UHGV virus genome: UHGV-1520160
DNA length: 39,030 nt
Source of the DNA: a virus
Reading direction: 5' to 3' (one strand)
The stretch's first letter is position 1, and the number at the start of each line of letters is the position of its first letter. Both the position numbers and the translations under genes were made by a program. The notes under the pieces were generated by a model. The model did no database searches. It was not told the origin of the DNA and was given only the letters and a program-made list of their open reading frames with translations. This document shows positions 2,145 through 16,346 of this stretch, in pieces.

Positions 2145-5100
2145 TTATGCCTGAGTACGCAGCGCTTCAAGGCGGCGCAGGTCGAAGTCGTTCAGTTCGT
2201 CGGTGTAATCAGCGGTGATCGGCGCTGGCCATTCGCCAGTGTCAAAGCCGGTAGCGATAGCGCGCATCGCCTTGCGGTACTCGAGCATGCCCAGCTCTAG
2301 CAGTTCAGCGGATGCCTCGATGATGGCGATCCAGTGGTAGTTCTCGTCTTTGTTGACGAAAATCCAGAAGAACTGGTCAAGTGCCGCGGTCTCGCAATAC
2401 ATGGCGGCGCTCAGGTGATAGTCACGGTCGATGATTTCCCGGTGCAGTTTGGCGCGCAGACCTTCCTGCTTAATGTTCCACATGCTGATGGTTTTAAGGT
2501 CGGCACCGATGCGTACCCCGTCCAAGTCGATCTCAAGGTCAGGACGCACGCGGACTTCAAGTCCGGTTTCGTCGTCAAAGCCAAAATAGCTCACCTCAAC
2601 AGCGCGGCTCGGGTGCTGGAGTAGCATCCCGGCGGTTGGGTGCTGGAGCAGGGCTTTCTGAATGGCCAGTGCGGTGCACAGTTGCTGGCGGGTGACCAGA
2701 ACTTTTCCTTGCGGATTCTCACGCCAGGCATCCAGCAATTCGTCGGCGAAGACGGCGTCCGGATTAACAGACTTCACGGCCTGTATCAGGTCTGATTTGG
2801 TACCGGACACTTTCAGCGGTTGCGGCTTCTGCGCTTCCTGGGCCACCAGGTCAGGATTGATGATTGCCAGCTGCTCGAGTAACGCATCACGGCTACCGCT
2901 GGTTTTCACCTGTGCTGGCAGAGTGGCGTTGTATTCCTTGATGCAGGCTTTCATCGCCGCTGCGGTCTGCTTCTGGTCCGCTTCGATACGCTGATACTCT
3001 TCAGGAAGCGACATATAGCTCTGACCAGTTTCCTCGACTGAACCACCCAGCGGCACCTGTGCTGGCAGAGTGGCGTTGTATTCTTCGAGCAAGGCTTTGA
3101 TCTCATCTGCACTCAGCAGCGCTTGCAGACCTGCGTTGTAATCATCGATAAACGCGCGGATCGTTGCCGTCGTGGTGAATGCGCCTTCCGGAATTACCGG
3201 TTCAACGCTGAATTCCTCATCGAGCTGCTCTGGCTGCAACGCCAGTGCATGAACCAGGTTACCCATGTCCAGCACCGGAGAACGCTCTTTGGTGATCGTT
3301 TTGGCAACGTGGCGCGCGTTGAAGTACATCAGGCTAACGCGGGCATCTTTTACCTGCGTGCTGCTGATCCCGTTCGCTGCGTGATAAACCTCGTTCGGCA
3401 GACCTTCATAGCGACCTGGCTCGAAGTAAGCGGGGTAAACAACAGCTGGTTCGTCAGATTGGGCATCTGGCTCGGTTTGTGCCAAAACTGGTTCAGTCTG
3501 GTTTACAGAATCGCTATTTTGGGCGACAGAATCCGTATTCTGGTTTACATCGGCTTGCTGGCTGGTATCTGATTCTTCACCAGTTTCCATACTGCTTTTG
3601 CCTGACTGCACTTCAGTACCAGCCTGTTTTTCATCACTGACAGTTTCTTGAACCTGCACATTGCTGGTGGTCTCCGTAGCCTTTTTCGTGCCATGAGTAG
3701 CTGAGTTCTGCAGCAAAGCCGTAACGTCGAATATTCCGTTGCCGACATTTTTAACCAGTTCTTGTTCGACTTTCTGCGGTTGTGCCGCAGCTTCCTCTGC
3801 GCGGCGGCGTGCTCCTTCTTCACGCACGCGTTGCAGGTTCTCTTCGTGAGTGCAGAAGGATTTGCGCGGAGACTCCTTACTTTCAGGTTGGTGAATTTCC
3901 TGAGTTGCTACTTCAGCTTCATGCAACGGCAATAACTCAACCGCAGAGTTGAATTCAGCAGTCATGGTCTGGTTAACAAATTCCAGGTGAGCGACAGGGG
4001 TTAGATGAATATTTTCCGGCGCGATACGTACCAGGTTAAAAATAGCCGTGCGGTTAACGCCAAGAGCGCCAGGCTGATTGCGCAGAATGCTGCTCCATGA
4101 TTTCCACGGTTCTTCTTTTTTGGTCACGATTTCTTTGGCGCGACGAAGAATGCTGCCTGGGATCTCGAAGTGGTTGAAGTCCATAGGCAGAAGGGCACAG
4201 GCAATCTCTAAATCGAGAGTGTCCAGGGTGTGGTGTGCGTCAGGTCCACGGTCAGTGACGTAACCGCCGTTGGCATTGGTTCCGGAATCAGTACGCTGAA
4301 CACTACTGATGTGATTACCGGCAGCCCATTCACGCGCCAGGATGCCACGGTCAATGTAATCAGTAGCCGCCCACATTCTGGTGAAACGGAGTACCAGCGC
4401 GAGTTCGTGACGCTTGTCCTGGCTGAACACTTTGCGAATGGCATCGGTGTAGCGCCACAGGTCTTTGGTGTCGTAACCCTTCACTTCCGGGCAGTTCTCA
4501 GCAGCTAACAGCAAGTTCTGGACGTAACTGTTATCAGTGTCCATCTCCAGCGCGCCGATAGCTTCGTACTCTTCGCGGGTTACGTGGTGGCGCAGTTCGT
4601 CGGCGGTGAACTGGGAAAGCAGTTGCTTACGAAACGGCATCTGCACTACCGGGTAGAGGGTTGAGTCGTCGTCGTGTTCGTCCAGCGTGATGCCAGCGGT
4701 TTCTGGCAGCGTTGACTCAGTAGTTATGTGACTATCAACGGTCTGAGCCGTTTTCTCGTCAGAGTTTTCAGCTGTGACTTTTGGCAGCCAGGTGCGGTCA
4801 TCGTTCTGCAGTTCGTAGCGTTCGCACCAGGTGTAATCCACTGCGCCTTCTTCCGGCAGGTCGTCATATACCGGGAAATCGGTGCGGATTGGTTTGGCAT
4901 AATCTTTACCGCGGCCAGTTTCTTCAATTCCGGCTTCTTCCAGTGCCACATCGAGTTGGAGATTGGCGCGCGCTACACTTTTCGCAGTGAACCAAATCAC
5001 TGCATCTTTCTTGCCAGACTTCTGACTGGCTTTTATCAGATGGAAAAATTCCATGTGAGATCCTCTTTTTTGAGTGTTAGAATCCCCGGGCCAGAGATAG

Positions 5101-5676: not shown

Positions 5677-5927
5677 TGTGCTTTGCCCTTGTCGCCAGGC
5701 TGGCGGAACGTTTCAAACCTACTGCGCGTTAATCTCACCACCTCATTCCGGTCTTCGTATGCCCCGGACGGCTACTTCGTGGGCTCCATGCCTGGGTGGT
5801 TCGTGGTGCGTCTTGGTGAGTTAGATTAAATCACTGGTTTATATATATGTCAACTTAAGGTTGGTGTTAATTGTAAATCTGAGGTTTATGTGGCTGGGTT
5901 TTGTGACACGTCTGCAGAATCGCAGGC

Positions 5928-5954
5928 AAAAAAAATCCCGACGCGTGGTCGGGA
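5928..5954 (-). terminator. rho-independent terminator ending the repressor-cassette transcript (tImm-like position)
   Basis: Plus strand has an A8 run 5928..5935 then stem tcccgac/gtcggga with loop gcgtg (5936..5954); on the minus strand this is a GC hairpin followed by U8. Confidence 0.55.
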
Positions 5955-6027
5955 TGAGAAGGTTCGGGGAAGGCGACAGAGTTAGTAGCTGAGAGCCTTA
6001 TAACTCAGGCGTATTGACCAAATCTGA

Positions 6028-6549
6028 CTAAAAGAAGTGCATAAAAGCTTTGTACAGCCCTGTACCAATGGCGATAATCGCAGGGACACCTAAGAGAATC
6101 GCCAATTTAGCATCAGAGATTTTCTTGTCCACTGTGTCTGATGAGGGCTTTTTGTCTACAGACTCTTTGATACTAGACAGCCTCTCCAAAACTACAGCCA
6201 TATTTTTGTCCAGTGAATTCACTGTCGTATCAACTTTTGAAACTGTGTTTTTTATCTCGGCAACATCTTTCTTGATGTGGGCAACTTCAACCTCAAGAAT
6301 AGCCAATCTCTTTTCCATGTCGTCACCTCCATCTTCAGTTGACGTATGAATGATTTCAGTATCATCCATAGCAACTGATGTGACAATCCGTTTTTGTTTA
6401 TCCGAAGCGGCAAAACTACAAGCACCCATAAGGAAGGTTGCTTGGCTCGAAGCTACTGATGAAAACTCTAAGCCTACTGTAGCTCCGCTATGGTCTGAAT
6501 ATGCAATCAATAACTTCCCTTCACCAAGAGATGATTGAGCCGCATCCAT
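6028..6549 (-). CDS. tail-anchored coiled-coil membrane protein (173 aa); candidate effector of the rex-position cassette
   Basis: ORF track trimmed to the ATG at 6549 (AGGAA about 10 nt upstream). Heptad-like central region (MEKRLAILEVEVAHIKKDVAEIKNTVSKVDTTVNSLDKNMAVVLERLSSIKESV) and one C-terminal hydrophobic helix (LAILLGVPAIIAIGTGLYKAF). Region looks AT-richer than flanks by eye. Confidence 0.5.
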   Translation of the reverse strand: MDAAQSSLGEGKLLIAYSDHSGATVGLEFSSVASSQATFLMGACSFAASDKQKRIVTSVAMDDTEIIHTSTEDGGDDMEKRLAILEVEVAHIKKDVAEIKNTVSKVDTTVNSLDKNMAVVLERLSSIKESVDKKPSSDTVDKKISDAKLAILLGVPAIIAIGTGLYKAFMHFF

Positions 6550-6555
6550 CAATTA

Positions 6556-6837
6556 TTATTCCTCAAACATACTTTTTAAGGATTGATAAAAATCATAAGC
6601 CTTTTGTTTGCTTAAAGTCACAGACACAACTTTGGTTCGCTGCATGCCCTTGACGACTATATCCGCATTATCCGTACCGATGATCGGGCTGCTATTCAGG
6701 AACACAAAATTGTAAACTTCGTAACCGGCATTTTGTGTGCCGATTGTTACGACACCGTCAGCATTGGTCTCGATGAAATTTTTCGCTTCGATTACATCAT
6801 TAAGATGCATAAGTTCGACGGTTGTTTCTTTAGACAC
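6556..6837 (-). CDS. hypothetical soluble protein (93 aa), first gene of the rex-position cassette
   Basis: GTG start at 6837 with a GGAGG Shine-Dalgarno 5 nt upstream; 6-nt gap to the downstream gene; 64-nt AT-rich spacer after the repressor stop. Confidence 0.5.
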   Translation of the reverse strand: MSKETTVELMHLNDVIEAKNFIETNADGVVTIGTQNAGYEVYNFVFLNSSPIIGTDNADIVVKGMQRTKVVSVTLSKQKAYDFYQSLKSMFEE

Positions 6838-6901
6838 CGAATCCTCCAGAAGATATTAAATCTTGAAATATTTTTATTACATGGAATTAGATACTACTGG
6901 T

Positions 6902-7291
6902 TTAGGTTTGCTCACCTTGCGATCGAATCCGACCCTTCATGTACTTCTCGTACAGCTCATCTAACTCTTTCAGGCGAAGCGCAAAAATGCGGAGCATGTT
7001 CTGCTGCTCTTCTTCCGGTAACTGGCGGTAGAGCTCGAGCAAACGCTGTTCGTCCGGTTTGAGACCGTCTTTCTCCCCAACGTCTTCACCGAGTAGCCAG
7101 GCGACAGAAATACCAACAGCGTCGGCTATGGCCAGTGCCGATTTCTTACTAATCACGCCTTTTTTGAACCAGCCGTTTACGGCCTGAGGGGTGACTCCAG
7201 CTATTCTTGCCATGTCTGCTTTGGTAACGCCGCGATCAGTGATCTCAGTAAGGCGCTCCACCAGAACGAGGTTGGGTTCTTCTTTTCTCAT
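6902..7291 (-). CDS. prophage repressor, DicA/RacR-type HTH (XRE family), no S24 peptidase domain
   Basis: ORF 6902..7561 trimmed to the ATG at 7291 (MRKEEPNLVLVERLTEITDRGVTKADMARIAGVTPQAVNGWFKKG...). C-terminal LLELYRQLPEEEQ resembles the DicA C-terminal segment from memory. Divergent from a Cro-like gene. Confidence 0.7.
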   Translation of the reverse strand: MRKEEPNLVLVERLTEITDRGVTKADMARIAGVTPQAVNGWFKKGVISKKSALAIADAVGISVAWLLGEDVGEKDGLKPDEQRLLELYRQLPEEEQQNMLRIFALRLKELDELYEKYMKGRIRSQGEQT

Positions 7292-7393
7292 ATGGTCATT
7301 GTAAATATTTGGTTTATGCACGCAATAAATCCAAAGTTTGCATGAAGTATAAATCTGTGGTTTACTTCTGCTATCAATAAGCAGGAGAAGCAC
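7292..7393. promoter_or_regulatory. immunity-region intergenic: divergent promoters with repeated operator-like motif TAAAT-N5-GGTTTA
   Basis: gtaaatatttggtttatg at 7301..7318 and taaatctgtggtttac at 7350..7365; a third copy gtaaatctgaggtttatg at 5873..5890 lies upstream of the leftward operon. Confidence 0.5.
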
Positions 7394-9710: not shown

Positions 9711-9917
9711 ATGATTGCTGCAAACTACACAGTCAATCTCTACTGCGACTGCGATGAGTGCACCGGTAAGCAATGGGGAAGCCCAGATTTTGCCGAGTAC
9801 ATTGGAAATTCATGGTCTGGCTGCGCTAAAGAGGCGCGGCCACATGGCTGGCGTATCAGCAAGGATAGAACGCGAGCGTTCGCGCCAGGTCACAAGATTT
9901 CGAGGACTAACCCATGA
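9711..9917 (+). CDS. hypothetical Cys-rich protein (68 aa)
   Basis: ORF track; CDCDEC motif plus a further Cys; gggggattgag RBS; coupled to neighbours. Confidence 0.4.
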   Translation: MIAANYTVNLYCDCDECTGKQWGSPDFAEYIGNSWSGCAKEARPHGWRISKDRTRAFAPGHKISRTNP

Positions 9918-10285
9918 CAACTATTACCAAAAAGCAACGCGCAGAGCTACGCATGAAGTTTGGCGGTCGCTGTACTTATTGTGGATGCGAACTACCAGAG
10001 AAAGGCTGGCATGCTTACCATGTAAAACCGGTCATTCGTTTTGATGGAAATATGCTTCACCAGGAACGTGACGATATATCAAACATGGTTCCAGCATGCC
10101 ACCCATGCAATCTGCACAAGCATTGCAGTAGCCTGGAAGATTACCGGCGAATTATCGGTGATGGTCGTCGTGAATTCCTTGTGTCCGGGAAAGGCAAAGC
10201 GCTGGTTCGTATGGGATTGGTTGAAATGAAATCTGACCCAGTGGTGTTCTGGTTCGAAAAATATCAAGAAGGAGCGTCAGCATGA
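9914..10285 (+). CDS. HNH endonuclease
   Basis: CTYCGC...HAYHVKPV...ACHPCNLHKH: Cys pairs with His-Asn-His spacing typical of HNH nucleases. Confidence 0.65.
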   Translation: MTTITKKQRAELRMKFGGRCTYCGCELPEKGWHAYHVKPVIRFDGNMLHQERDDISNMVPACHPCNLHKHCSSLEDYRRIIGDGRREFLVSGKGKALVRMGLVEMKSDPVVFWFEKYQEGASA

Positions 10286-10761
10286 CAACTAACAACCACC
10301 CGGCGCACGGTCCTGTATCACTCGATCGCCTGCACCAGATACGTGAAATACTCAGCAAAGCAGCAGCACAAAGCGACGGCGGTAATGTCGGCTATGCGAT
10401 GGCTGATGCTGTGAAGGTGATTAATGGAGTTCTGGAGTCGATGGCCCGTGAGCAAGTACGCCGTGAGCATGCTACATGGTCACAGGCTACTTTCGGCGAT
10501 GTCGGTCCAGTTGGTCCTCTGAAGCACCTTTCTAAAGAAGCGCTCGAGGCTGCTGCTGAACCTGGCGACCTTAGCGAATGGGCTGACATGCAATTCCTGT
10601 TATGGGATACGCAGCGTCGTGCCGGTATCAGTGATGAACAGATTACCCAAGCGATGGTAGAGAAGTTGGCGATTAACAAACAGCGCAAATGGCCTGAGCC
10701 GAAAGACGGTGAGCCATGTGTACATGACAGAATGAATCATGAGCGTATTGATTTTAGCTGA
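10282..10761 (+). CDS. putative phage nucleotide pyrophosphohydrolase-like protein (DUF550/MazG-like), tentative
   Basis: 159 aa ORF in the nin-like region; family assignment from loose recollection of the N-terminal region only. Confidence 0.35.
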   Translation: MTTNNHPAHGPVSLDRLHQIREILSKAAAQSDGGNVGYAMADAVKVINGVLESMAREQVRREHATWSQATFGDVGPVGPLKHLSKEALEAAAEPGDLSEWADMQFLLWDTQRRAGISDEQITQAMVEKLAINKQRKWPEPKDGEPCVHDRMNHERIDFS

Positions 10762-10889
10762 CTCACCGTAGCAACAATGAATAATGTTTCGAGTGTATTT
10801 GATTATGCATTGTGAGATGGACATTACTGAGAGTGTAAATCTTAGTTTATGATAATGGACAGCAATGAAATTATACCCGGAGAGCGATA

Positions 10890-11357
10890 ATGGATACTAA
10901 GAATGAAGTTGTGCAACATTCATCACCCCAGCAGGCAGTGAGAGTATTTGCCGAGGCCCTTGAACAAGCCGTTAGGGAGAACACTATAGAAGATTCGAAC
11001 TCTCGGTCGCCTGGAAAAACTGTGCTTGATTCAAATTCAGAAATAAAATCTTCAACAATTGTCGGTGCTGGTGGATTGATCGGAACTGCTGGCGTTGCAG
11101 CCACTACAGCTTCGGCCGTTACTGGTGGGTCAGCTGCTACTATAATGTCTGCAACAGCTGGAACAGTTGGAGCCAGTGTTGCATCTTTAGCAGGCGCAGC
11201 AGGAACGGCAGGGGCTGCGTCGATCTCATCCGGAATGGCAGCCGTTGGTTCGGTTGTTGGAGGAGGAATGGCCGCCGGGGCAATAATCACAGCGGTGGCA
11301 CCTGTCGCAGCAGTCGCAAGTGTTGCTTACTTGGCTTTTAAGCTTTTTGAAGATTAA
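10890..11357 (+). CDS. Gly/Ala/Thr/Ser-rich hydrophobic (glycine-zipper-like) membrane protein with about 55-aa polar N-terminal domain
   Basis: 155 aa; C-terminal two-thirds is low-complexity (GAGGLIGTAGVAATTASAVTGGSAATIMSATAGTVGASV...AYLAFKLFED). AT-rich 128-bp upstream spacer; GGAG RBS 9 nt before the ATG. Confidence 0.5.
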   Translation: MDTKNEVVQHSSPQQAVRVFAEALEQAVRENTIEDSNSRSPGKTVLDSNSEIKSSTIVGAGGLIGTAGVAATTASAVTGGSAATIMSATAGTVGASVASLAGAAGTAGAASISSGMAAVGSVVGGGMAAGAIITAVAPVAAVASVAYLAFKLFED

Positions 11358-11561
11358 CTAACCTTTCATAAAGGCTGTTTAAGCAGGCTAATTTTCATAT
11401 CTTAGTAAAGTTTCTGCTGGTTAATAATTAGCAGATACAAAACAGAATCCCGCGATTTCACGGCGGAGCCAGCTATGTTTGCTGAAGCACTGGTGCGTGC
11501 AAATTTGCCAGAGCTTTGTCAGCAGAAACAAATAGCGGCTTAATAAAACATTGCTAATTCA

Positions 11562-11589
11562 ACCCGCTACGGCGGGTTTTCTTTTTTTA
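11562..11589 (+). terminator. rho-independent terminator
   Basis: cccgc-tacg-gcggg hairpin followed by ttttcttttttt. Confidence 0.5.
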
Positions 11590-11650
11590 CTACTGACAGA
11601 AAATTAACAATTTGTGCTCTTAAAACGTTGATCATTTCCGTGCATAGGTA

Positions 11651-11670
11651 TACTGTATAAAAACACAGTA
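11651..11670. promoter_or_regulatory. LexA (SOS) box upstream of the dinI homolog
   Basis: tactgtataaaaacacagta fits the CTGT-N8-ACAG consensus exactly and overlaps a TATAAA -10-like element; a TTGATC -35-like hexamer lies at 11628..11633. Confidence 0.7.
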
Positions 11671-11688
11671 CATGCAATGGAGGCCATT

Positions 11689-11922
11689 ATGAAAGTTGAA
11701 TTAACCATTGATCGCATGAAAGAACTTCCTAAAGGCGCGGTACCAGCACTGGAGAAAGAATTGCTTAAGCGCCTGAATGATCACTATGACAATTGCAGGC
11801 TCACAATCCGCCGTGCCGGGTCCGATGGGTTAAGTGTTTTCGGTGGAGACAAGGACGATAAAAAGAAAATCGAATCCATCCTCCAGGAAACCTGGGAAAG
11901 CGCTGACGACTGGTTTTATTAG
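11689..11922 (+). CDS. dinI: DinI-family DNA damage-inducible protein
   Basis: ORF trimmed to the ATG at 11689 (GGAGG RBS). MKVELTIDRMKELPKGAVPALEKELLKRL...ILQETWESADDWFY matches recalled E. coli DinI (MRIEVTIAK...ISEILQETWESADDWF). Confidence 0.85.
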   Translation: MKVELTIDRMKELPKGAVPALEKELLKRLNDHYDNCRLTIRRAGSDGLSVFGGDKDDKKKIESILQETWESADDWFY

Positions 11923-13780: not shown

Positions 13781-13917
13781 CATTTGAATCCTGTTTTTCC
13801 GATCACCTCCGCGTTCGCTGGCAGCGGCTTCGCTTATACCACTTTCCCGGCTCTGTGCTAACGGACTACCGGATACTGAAGAATTACGTGAAAACTTATG
13901 CTGGAGAAGCGCTATGA
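13777..13917 (+). CDS. YlcG-like small protein (46 aa)
   Basis: Manual translation: [46 protein letters not shown]; overlaps the rusA stop and the Q start; conserved core [20 protein letters not shown]. Confidence 0.6.
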
Positions 13918-14729
13918 ACCTTGAAAACACAGTGAAATACCACTTCGCTAAATCCACACTGATTAGCGATTCTCCGCGCGCTACCGTCTCCGATTCACTG
14001 ACCGGTACCGACATAATGGCTGCCATGGGCATGACGCAGGAACGCGCCGCAATGGGTTACAGCGCCTTCCTCGGCAAGATGGGCATAAGCAATAACGACC
14101 GGGATCGGGCGATCGGTCTGCTGGCTGAGTACGCGATGACAAAATGCGACAAGGTTGCCGCACTGCGTAAGCTCGGTGCCGCGGTTAAACCTCAGGTGAT
14201 GCACCAGTTGGCCACCTTCGCTTTTGAGGACTATTCCCGCAGCGCTGCCAGCGTGAAGCAGTGCGATTGTTGTGACGGTCAGGGCTTCATTGAGGCTGAC
14301 GTGTTCACAATGAAATCTCATTATTCAATGAGGATTCCTCAATGGGCGAAAGAGCTTGGTCAGTCACCGAGTGATTTCGAGGTTAAACGACAGGTTCGAG
14401 AGGTGGTTCGAGTGCTGTGCTCGAACTGCAAGGGGAAGAAGGTTGTCAGTTGTGCCTGCAATGATTGCCGGGGACGTGGGAAAGCCGTAGACCAGAAGGA
14501 AACGAAGAAACAGGGGGTGCCGGTTATGACTGACTGCAAGCGCTGCGGCGGGCGTGGATATGAACGCATTCCTTCAACTGAGGCCCACGCAGCTATTTGC
14601 CAGATTACGGATGTAATCAGCCTGGATACGTGGAAGAAGTCCGTTAAACCGTTCTATGATCAGCTGATTACGAAATTCGATATTGAAGAGGCATGGGCAG
14701 AAAACCAACTGAAACAAATAACACGATAA
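13914..14729 (+). CDS. late-gene antitermination protein Q (phage 82 / QuuD-like, Cys-rich zinc-binding)
   Basis: 271 aa; position after rusA/ylcG and before the lysis genes; multiple Cys clusters (CDCCDGQG, CSNCKGKK, CACNDCRGRG, CKRCGGRG). Confidence 0.75.
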   Translation: MNLENTVKYHFAKSTLISDSPRATVSDSLTGTDIMAAMGMTQERAAMGYSAFLGKMGISNNDRDRAIGLLAEYAMTKCDKVAALRKLGAAVKPQVMHQLATFAFEDYSRSAASVKQCDCCDGQGFIEADVFTMKSHYSMRIPQWAKELGQSPSDFEVKRQVREVVRVLCSNCKGKKVVSCACNDCRGRGKAVDQKETKKQGVPVMTDCKRCGGRGYERIPSTEAHAAICQITDVISLDTWKKSVKPFYDQLITKFDIEEAWAENQLKQITR

Positions 14730-15547: not shown

Positions 15548-15826
15548 ATGACCAGAATGAGCACCATTTACAGCAGACTTTCATATGGAACAGGAACCAC
15601 GCTGACCGGCTGCGGTGTATCAGCGAAGGCATATGCCGAAACAGCTAAAACAGCAAAAGAGGTGTCCTGGATGTTGGCCGACAGAATTGCAGGGTTAAGC
15701 CTGAGCGACTGGGCAATTATTGTCGGTATCGCATGCACGGTAATCACCTGTGCAGTGAACTGGTATTTCCGCTGGAAAGAACGGGAGGATCGGCGCAATG
15801 GCTATGTCTCTAAAGCTGAAGAATAA
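15548..15826 (+). CDS. holin (class II / pinholin-like)
   Basis: 92 aa; hydrophobic helices (WAIIVGIACTVITCAVNWYF) followed by a charged tail (RWKEREDRRNGY); immediately upstream of the lysozyme. Confidence 0.65.
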   Translation: MTRMSTIYSRLSYGTGTTLTGCGVSAKAYAETAKTAKEVSWMLADRIAGLSLSDWAIIVGIACTVITCAVNWYFRWKEREDRRNGYVSKAEE

Positions 15827-16346
15827 ATTGAGCGCAGCGGTCGTTGGTTTGATTCTTGCCGGGGCTTCCGCACCCGTGATTCTCGATCAGTTTCTGGATG
15901 AGAAAGAGGGTAACAGCTTGACAGCATATCGCGACGGCGGCGGACTCTGGACCATTTGCCGTGGTGCAACAATGGTTGATGGCAAGCCAGTAGTACAGGG
16001 CATGAAGCTGTCAGCTGAGAAATGCGCCCAGGTAAACGCCATTGAACGCGACAAGGCGCTGGCGTGGGTTGACCGAAATATCAAAGTACCACTGACCGAA
16101 CCACAGAAAGCGGGTATCGCTTCTTTCTGCCCATATAACATCGGCCCCGGAAAATGTTTCCCGTCTACGTTCTATAAGCGAATTAATGCTGGCGATACGA
16201 AAGGAGCCTGTGAAGCTATCCGCTGGTGGATTAAAGACGGTGGCCGCGATTGCCGCCTGACCAAAGGCCAGAAGAATGGCTGCTATGGTCAGGTTGAGCG
16301 ACGGGACCAGGAAAGCGCGCTGGCGTGCTGGGGGTTAGACCAATGA
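15798..16346 (+). CDS. phage lysozyme (GH24 family) with N-terminal signal-anchor (SAR endolysin)
   Basis: Catalytic motif EKEGNSLTAYRDGGGLWTICRGAT (E...D...T of T4/P21-type lysozymes); N-terminal hydrophobic LSAAVVGLILAGASAPVIL; GGGAGG RBS. Confidence 0.8.
   Translation: MAMSLKLKNKLSAAVVGLILAGASAPVILDQFLDEKEGNSLTAYRDGGGLWTICRGATMVDGKPVVQGMKLSAEKCAQVNAIERDKALAWVDRNIKVPLTEPQKAGIASFCPYNIGPGKCFPSTFYKRINAGDTKGACEAIRWWIKDGGRDCRLTKGQKNGCYGQVERRDQESALACWGLDQ

Follow-up and report, generated by a model that had tools for sequence, protein, structure and literature searches.

In the 39,030-nucleotide (nt) stretch of viral DNA UHGV-1520160 (the window, at its full length), which is a Rac-like lambdoid Escherichia coli prophage integrated beside kch, two small genes that we call A and B follow the prophage repressor and end at a terminator, in the position that rexA and rexB hold in phage lambda. 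Both are genuine genes under purifying selection. We propose, with a probability of roughly 0.45, that A and B form a two-part prophage exclusion module of the immunity block, a sensor with a membrane effector, that acts by Rex-like abortive infection. More broadly, and at somewhat less than even odds, the pair may exemplify a large unrecognised anti-phage class of about 900 clusters (clustered at 50% identity; the sampled members come mostly from Enterobacterales), in which a conserved tail-anchored coiled-coil effector is joined at a poly-Gly recombination joint to an exchangeable partner and N-terminus that set target specificity, and which would have colonised rexAB, sieA and tail-moron slots, that of the O157:H7 Stx1 prophage among them. 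Of all places known to harbour phage-exclusion genes, the one behind the repressor has been known longest (rex, 1955).

The cassette in the immunity block

The gene order of the prophage is int, RecT, RecE, YdaE, immunity block, YdaS, YdaT, O and P. The 39 kb contain four copies of a 15-nt motif, TAAATNNNNGGTTTA, with starts at 5827, 5874, 7302 and 7350, against a chance expectation of 0.01. Two copies (7302-7316 and 7350-7364) make up OR (7302..7364), between the repressor and the divergent ydaS/cro-like gene, and the other two (5827-5841 and 5874-5888) lie just beyond the terminator in OL/pL (5825..5888, minus strand). A leftward promoter probably overlaps OL, with TTGACA (5853..5848) and TTTAAT (5830..5825) set 17 nt apart; these hexamers were read by eye, and the promoter scan did not call a leftward promoter at this site. 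Because the operators flank the repressor, A, B and the terminator, the layout reads OR / repressor, A, B, terminator / OL, which is the same as oR / cI, rexA, rexB, tImm / oL in lambda. The lambda-like rexA/rexB position that a first-pass annotation of this DNA had claimed is therefore borne out by the operators that bracket the block.

The repressor gene (6902..7291, minus strand) encodes a DicA-like protein of 129 amino acids (aa) with an HTH_3 domain (Pfam HTH_3, 1.5e-6; NCBIfam DicA, 1.9e-8, below that model's cut-off); no S24 domain was found in it. The RefSeq start at 7321 looks wrong, because the operator copy at 7302-7316 would then fall inside the coding sequence, and ATG 7291 is the better-fitting start. 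At the other end of the block, the intrinsic terminator (5928..5955, minus strand), the equivalent of tImm, consists of an 8-bp stem (5955..5935) with 5 GC pairs followed by T7, and stands ahead of the leftward operators as the annotation had described. A terminator is also annotated at the equivalent place in the HK544 and VT1-Sakai records. The region from the repressor stop to A contains no terminator-like site, and an own, internal promoter (pLit-like) was not apparent in the cassette region, where 5 promoter-like sites compare with 3.0 ± 1.7 in shuffles.

Gene A (6556..6837, minus strand) encodes an acidic (isoelectric point 4.9), soluble protein of 93 aa, with a GTG start and a Shine-Dalgarno sequence, GGAGG (6843..6847, minus strand), 5 nt ahead of it. 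RefSeq calls an 84-aa form from an internal ATG, and this start looks wrong. The 93-aa form is preferred because phrog_12039, a family of unassigned function, matches it end to end (residues 1-93 of 93, E = 1.6e-47), because HK544c104 is annotated as GTG-initiated too, and because S2 and L9 are invariant in homologues; GGAGG and GTG likewise favour it. The protein has no hydrophobic segment (best KD19 1.0), in agreement with its earlier description as soluble, and is predicted to be beta-rich with a helix at the C-terminus. The A family comprises 56 clusters, all from Enterobacterales, of 53-101 aa (mostly 93-95); its members always stand alone, and no fusion to another domain was seen in the 56 clusters. 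Profile searches with A gave no match in Pfam, NCBIfam, PADLOC or PDB sequences, and a Foldseek comparison of its model with BFVD gave nothing at E ≤ 0.001. Two candidate relationships were rejected, namely DUF4313 (E = 0.048, in only 2 of 14 members) and homology of A to the N-terminal domain of B, suspected by eye (hhalign probability 0.2%). Compared with distant homologues, A has a pN of 0.18 and a pS of 0.86 (synonymous sites saturated); the ratio of nonsynonymous to synonymous rates (dN/dS) of B between distant homologues is 0.16-0.24.

Gene B (6028..6549, minus strand) begins with the ATG at 6549, 6 nt after the stop of A, and encodes a protein of 173 aa and 18.4 kDa that matches phrog_12602 (2.7e-54, residues 1-147) and phrog_3556 (3.2e-28, residues 63-173). 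Four segments, all encoded on the minus strand, can be distinguished. Residues 1-52 (6394..6549) form a small N-terminal domain, modeled at low confidence by AlphaFold2 as a beta-hairpin and a helix, which always occurs together with A. Residues 53-77 (6319..6393) are a disordered S/T- and D/E-rich linker with GGDDM at its end (predicted local distance difference test, pLDDT, <50). Residues 78-132 (6154..6318) are a coiled coil of 8 uninterrupted heptads, in which 16 of the 16 a/d positions are L, I, V or M, and residues ~147-167 (6049..6111) are the sole transmembrane (TM) helix, a C-terminal tail anchor (KD19 1.96) followed by ~6 residues. By hydropathy, the N-terminal domain, coiled coil and single C-terminal TM helix of the first-pass annotation are thus recovered. 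An invariant KKPS motif and a K-rich segment with 5 K/R precede the TM helix, and the K-rich segment suggests that the bulk of B would be cytoplasmic. A profile search against PDB sequences returned generic coiled coils only; most of these weak matches are trimeric coils, a slight hint at the oligomeric state of B.

Disrupted forms of B also occur. In E. coli KL53 (L037, NZ_CP030919, 727-2311), an IS3 insertion sequence lies in the 3' part of B (~window 6028-6190), so that B is cut to 119 aa and its TM anchor is lost; A and the repressor are intact. The loss could reflect neutral decay or a cost that B imposes on its carrier. Locus L032 of Salmonella (99 aa) and locus L034 of Serratia (93 aa) likewise have a shortened B-like open reading frame (ORF) beside an intact A.

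The cassette differs from its surroundings in base composition. Its G+C content (GC) is 41.0% compared with 52.4% for the window, and GC at third codon positions is 0.39-0.44 in the cassette genes versus 0.57-0.58 in the repressor and recE. A GC as low as that of the cassette is reached by just 0.5% of 810-nt windows, and the lowest value of the 39 kb lies inside it, so that the AT-richness first judged by eye held up in the windowed calculation. This exact region was present in 13 of 5,426 complete E. coli genomes, and many relatives of this prophage are without the cassette. In three relatives whose repressor, ydaS and ydaT are almost the same, the slot is filled differently: by a 467-aa protein without any domain match in ET881 (L002 4545-5948); by a second helix-turn-helix protein, YoaK, HicA/HicB and a 141-aa protein in AR_0118 (L003 4126-5953); and by a zinc-ribbon protein with two multi-TM proteins in phage PHB10 (L004 4772-5898). 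The GC dip and the differing cargo behind a shared repressor support horizontal acquisition, as had been suggested. According to PMC8585504, which refers to Degnan et al. 2007, the cI-N interval is a mosaic hotspot in which rexAB and bstA are found.

Two further observations concern other parts of the window. A second low-GC patch (0.41-0.46) lies at 10600-11800 in the nin-like region, with overlapping ORFs at 10871-11290 (minus strand) and 10890-11357 (plus strand) that have no Pfam match; this patch may be another moron. Past the replication genes, at 9914-10761, an ORF for an HNH endonuclease has directly behind it one for a dATP/dGTP pyrophosphohydrolase (PF04447).

Homologues, partner genes and modular design

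A tblastn search against sequenced phages found A and B together in HK544, VT1-Sakai and phiSTEC801-Stx1a. The HK544 immunity record (EF120455) contains a lambda-type cI, HK544c104, HK544c103, tImm, oL3-oL1 and pL, where HK544c104 is the A homologue (74% identical) and HK544c103 is B-like; here the pair lies between lambda cI and tImm. In Sp15, the Shiga toxin 1 (Stx1) prophage of O157:H7 Sakai, the order is cI, A, B, terminator, operators, N and sieB. The Sakai locus tags are ECs2991 for A and ECs2992 (H0053) for B, and the EDL933 pair is Z3359/Z3360. These homologues of A and B are 55-75% identical and are labeled 'unknown function', 'hypothetical' or 'putative membrane protein'; B of HK544 and O157 differs from B of the window in the end of the coiled coil and in the TM tail. 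The earlier statement that neither protein matches a family does not stand. The pair belongs to the PHROG families phrog_12039 (A) and phrog_12602, phrog_3556 and phrog_6136 (B), the HK544 pair has been in GenBank since 2007 ('conserved hypothetical'), and the O157 genes have locus tags, so that A and B are not new to databases.

We also investigated the distribution of the pair in bacterial genomes. A distant-mode DNA search found the A + B (type 1) cassette in 106 of the 5,426 E. coli genomes; the cassette and its relatives are present in many O157:H7 Stx1 prophages. In Salmonella, Serratia and Yersinia, A-like genes (94-101 aa) stand directly behind an S24-type repressor, with a B type-1 gene after them. 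Every A-family locus fetched inside a prophage has this repressor-first order, and behind unrelated repressors the order recurs across E. coli, Salmonella, Serratia, Yersinia, Klebsiella, Enterobacter and Phaseolibacter.

The O157 homologues are expressed, as the first-pass annotation had expected for lysogens. ECs2991 was among the proteins identified in the O157:H7 proteome in rumen fluid (PMC3936929), and Z3360 is in a table of abundant proteins as one of the authors' candidate lipoproteins, with an APEXi of 858 (PMC3210124). In an array comparison of an RpoS wild type and mutant, Z3360 gave a log2 signal of 11.8-13.0 and differed ~2-fold between the two strains (PMC2907692). Since the operon structure is identical to that of these homologues, the A and B genes of the window are probably expressed in the lysogen as well.

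All prophage and phage contexts that we examined have a small gene directly ahead of the B-like gene, abutting it or overlapping it by 1-14 nt. This partner is a member of the A family (93-101 aa) in the window, HK544, Sp15, Salmonella, Serratia and Yersinia. Elsewhere it is a protein of 87 aa (E. coli locus L010), 94 aa (phage UPF_BP1), 148 aa (Enterobacter), 156 aa (gp45 of epsilon34), 147 aa (a metagenome-assembled genome) or 139 aa (Phaseolibacter), or a zinc-ribbon protein of 109 aa (Klebsiella), 124 aa (Salmonella phage 29485) or 119 aa (Serratia locus L018).

To examine how partner and N-terminus vary together, we compared them by all-against-all BLAST. The 87- and 94-aa partners are 95% identical, and both accompany the B N-terminus MKHDYYEAPNL, on two different tails. 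Similarly, the 148-aa partner and epsilon34 gp45 are 53% identical and both accompany a QLRPNQD..DAYS N-terminus, with different coil and TM halves, and A accompanies the GKLLIAYSD domain of B on at least three tail types. The partner type therefore follows the N-terminal segment of B and not the tail, which suggests two units of inheritance, the partner with the N-terminus of B and the stalk with the anchor, joined at the Gly-rich linker. In keeping with this boundary, DNA similarity between the window and the O157 variant ends at about residue 93 of B; the linker at residues 53-77 would be the recombination joint of the B family. Because the partner type tracks the N-terminus and not the tail, we infer that the partner binds the N-terminal segment of B. 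The zinc-ribbon type has also been combined with other, unrelated membrane proteins, in PHB10, whose zinc-ribbon protein is related to the zinc-ribbon partners of B-like genes elsewhere.

A search for related loci, run from an alignment, returned 8 loci. Such pairs occupy other slots as well. In the immI region of UPF_BP1, a P22-like phage, mnt is followed by the 94-aa partner and a B-like gene of 149 aa; Mnt of this phage was verified by Arc and Repressor_Mnt domains. In P22 itself, sieA adjoins mnt (PMC10883804). Zinc-ribbon partners and B-like genes also pair up within apparent tail-gene regions, away from the immunity region: in phage 29485 (L030 2553-3297) immediately ahead of the tape-measure gene, and in Serratia grimesii (L018 3556-4300) after several unassigned ORFs. 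We take this position to resemble that of the HK97 gp15 moron.

These positions bear on a different explanation, non-abortive superinfection exclusion, in which A and B at the cytoplasmic face of the inner membrane would block genome translocation or ejection proteins and the cell would survive. SieA, HK97 gp15 and T4 Imm block entry of incoming phages, and the UPF_BP1 pair sits where sieA does, the zinc-ribbon versions are morons among tail genes like HK97 gp15, B is constitutively abundant in a lysogen, and its interchangeable TM tails look more like anchors than like parts of a specific pore. We consider an entry block a serious but less likely rival. With ~6 residues past the TM helix, almost none of B would be periplasmic; the known entry blockers are polytopic or periplasm-facing. 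A soluble, variable partner looks more like an intracellular sensor.

We further analyzed the B family with a profile of the coiled-coil and tail-anchor part of B. Searched against 1.84 billion representatives, this profile matched 934 clusters at E ≤ 1e-3, 55 of them at ≤ 1e-10. The best 150 matches are mostly 53-250 aa long; a few much longer, multiply matched proteins are probably coiled-coil noise. As read from sampled small members, the family plan from N to C is a variable short peptide or small domain, a poly-Gly run, a coiled-coil core, a variable coil and a TM helix. The coil begins with a strongly conserved M(L)E.RVAKLESDV.YIK.D, and nowhere is conservation across the family higher than in its first ~4 heptads; the variable continuation often contains KKPS, and the C-terminal TM helices are of several unrelated types. 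All of the 94 sampled relatives (94/94) match phrog_3556. In Pantoea chromosomes, short B-like genes consist of the coiled coil and tail anchor only (L021 3567-3866 and 3896-4306; L022-L024 ~3974-4276), and neither a repressor nor phage genes were seen among the adjacent ORFs. In L021, two different B-like genes stand in tandem.

This architecture raises the question of XhlA-type lysis accessories, which would act with the holin in the lytic cycle. The resemblance of B to XhlA noted earlier is weakly supported. The plan of a coiled coil followed by a C-terminal TM helix is shared, 19 of the 94 relatives touch Pfam XhlA (PF10779; best E 1.8e-7), and there are weak matches to phrog_937 and phrog_1193 'hemolysin' (B matches a PHROG with the label 'hemolysin' at 1.4e-5). 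However, B itself has no match to Pfam XhlA even at E ≤ 1 (gathering score 34.7 bits), and we regard its likeness to XhlA and holin families as architectural and remote. B also lies inside the immunity block on the repressor strand, ~9 kb from the lysozyme (15798..16346) and Q antiterminator (13914..14729) genes. The reading is further weakened because the O157 homologues are expressed in uninduced cultures, and a role in lysis appears very unlikely.

Proposed function and its weighing

The proposed exclusion module would work as follows. A and B would be a two-gene moron, transcribed with the repressor in the lysogen and translationally coupled. B would be tail-anchored in the inner membrane, with a cytoplasmic, oligomeric coiled-coil stalk that carries the small N-terminal domain on a flexible Gly/acidic linker. 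A would dock on this domain and supply specificity, and the unit of A and the B N-terminus would sense a product of a superinfecting phage. The conserved coiled coil and tail anchor would then disturb the inner membrane, resulting in a Rex-like abortive infection. A two-part A-B complex is plausible. Our confidence in membrane perturbation and abortive infection as the output is moderate to low; this output is favoured because of the analogy with RexAB and other pairs of a soluble sensor and a membrane effector. What we observe directly is the anatomy, the position, purifying selection, expression of the O157 homologues, the modular family and the joint variation of partner type and B N-terminus; physical A-B binding, an oligomeric B, its cytoplasmic orientation, an anti-phage role and membrane damage are the proposed part of the scheme.

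Several observations weigh against it. The AlphaFold2 models of A (pLDDT 48) and B (pLDDT 57), both built from shallow alignments, are poor and give no fold evidence. In PADLOC-DB 2.0.0, A had no match and B only coiled-coil noise (LmuB, DruC and JetA, E ≥ 8.7e-4), and the literature searched, with Degnan et al. 2007 and Brenes & Laub 2025 outside its scope, contained no functional study of any family member. The B homologue is abundant in O157 lysogens without obvious toxicity, and the unrelated TM tails that replace the tail segment in relatives fit a mere anchor as well as a pore. The Pantoea B-like genes are orphans without a partner, outside any recognisable prophage. In a Rahnella metagenome contig (L005, 4305-5528), a pair (A 36% and B 54% identical) follows a DUF3024 gene beside transporter genes, and neither a repressor nor phage genes were seen there. 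Of the A-family loci fetched, this is the only one that departs from the repressor-first order, and the pair could be what is left of a prophage or could be a copy in the chromosome. Both the entry block and the possibility considered next stay in contention because the TM tails are interchangeable, healthy lysogens contain abundant B and orphan B-like genes exist in Pantoea.

Another possibility is physiological. A and B could be a lysogeny or host-physiology module unrelated to defence, in which B would tether to the membrane either A or a host factor that binds its coiled-coil core, and would tune the lysis-lysogeny switch or induction, or else alter envelope or stress physiology as a trait of lysogenic conversion. 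Co-transcription with the repressor is consistent with such a role, as are the orphan genes of Pantoea and the ~2-fold difference of Z3360 between the wild type and the rpoS mutant. The strong conservation of the first stalk heptads hints at a conserved, possibly host, binding partner. RexA and RexB themselves reportedly bias the lysis-lysogeny switch, according to a recent RexA study. However, the rapid swapping of partners, N-peptides and whole cargos between near-identical prophages is an arms-race signature, and many relatives of the prophage do without the cassette, so that we judge a role outside defence a serious but less likely rival.

At ~800 bp and with two small proteins, the cassette is experimentally tractable. 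Should it be a defence system, it would represent a new effector type, a tail-anchored coiled coil, and would illustrate clearly how nature plugs in modules for specificity; it could affect which phages, such as therapeutic phages or other Stx phages, grow on such lysogens. If it is not, the analysis still marks an abundant prophage membrane protein of pathogenic E. coli.

Comparison with known systems

Neither A nor B matched a characterised family in Pfam or NCBIfam, the B matches being coiled-coil noise, and no toxin or antitoxin domain was found in either protein in these two databases. Tail assembly inhibition (Tai/Ati) was considered and rejected as unrelated, since HK544 is only the challenge phage there and Tai lies upstream of packaging genes.

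XhlA of PBSX is a small, coiled-coil, tail-anchored phage membrane protein of a lysis cassette. B shares with it a short coiled coil (78-132) followed by a C-terminal TM helix (~147-167). The two differ in setting, since XhlA has a holin/endolysin neighbourhood whereas B lies in the immunity block, and in build, since B has an N-terminal domain, a Gly/acidic linker (poly-Gly in relatives) and, encoded upstream, an obligatory partner.

P22 SieA resembles the pair in being repressor-linked cargo, although the position after mnt is shared by the UPF_BP1 pair only. SieA is polytopic, with several predicted TM helices (PMC10883804), whereas B is single-pass, and homology between SieA and B was not detected. 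BstA of BTP1, Stk of 933W and gp30/31 of Sbash are, like A and B, lysogen-expressed cargo directly after the repressor, and homology to them was likewise not detected. BstA and Stk are single large soluble proteins, and gp30/31 of the mycobacteriophage Sbash is said to be a pair of a soluble and a membrane protein.

The closest likeness is to lambda RexAB, with which slot and operon logic are identical: the soluble protein comes first, the membrane protein second, and both are expressed in the lysogen. In HK544, the pair even stands behind lambda cI, where lambda has rexA-rexB. The proteins themselves differ. RexA has 279 aa compared with 93 for A, RexB is a polytopic 4-TM protein whereas B is single-pass and anchored at its C-terminus, and no Rex family appeared among the Pfam, NCBIfam and PADLOC matches of A and B at E ≤ 1. 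What is new lies in the proteins and in their modular design, whereas the kind of system is known, namely exclusion cargo behind the repressor in which the gene for the soluble component precedes that for the membrane component.

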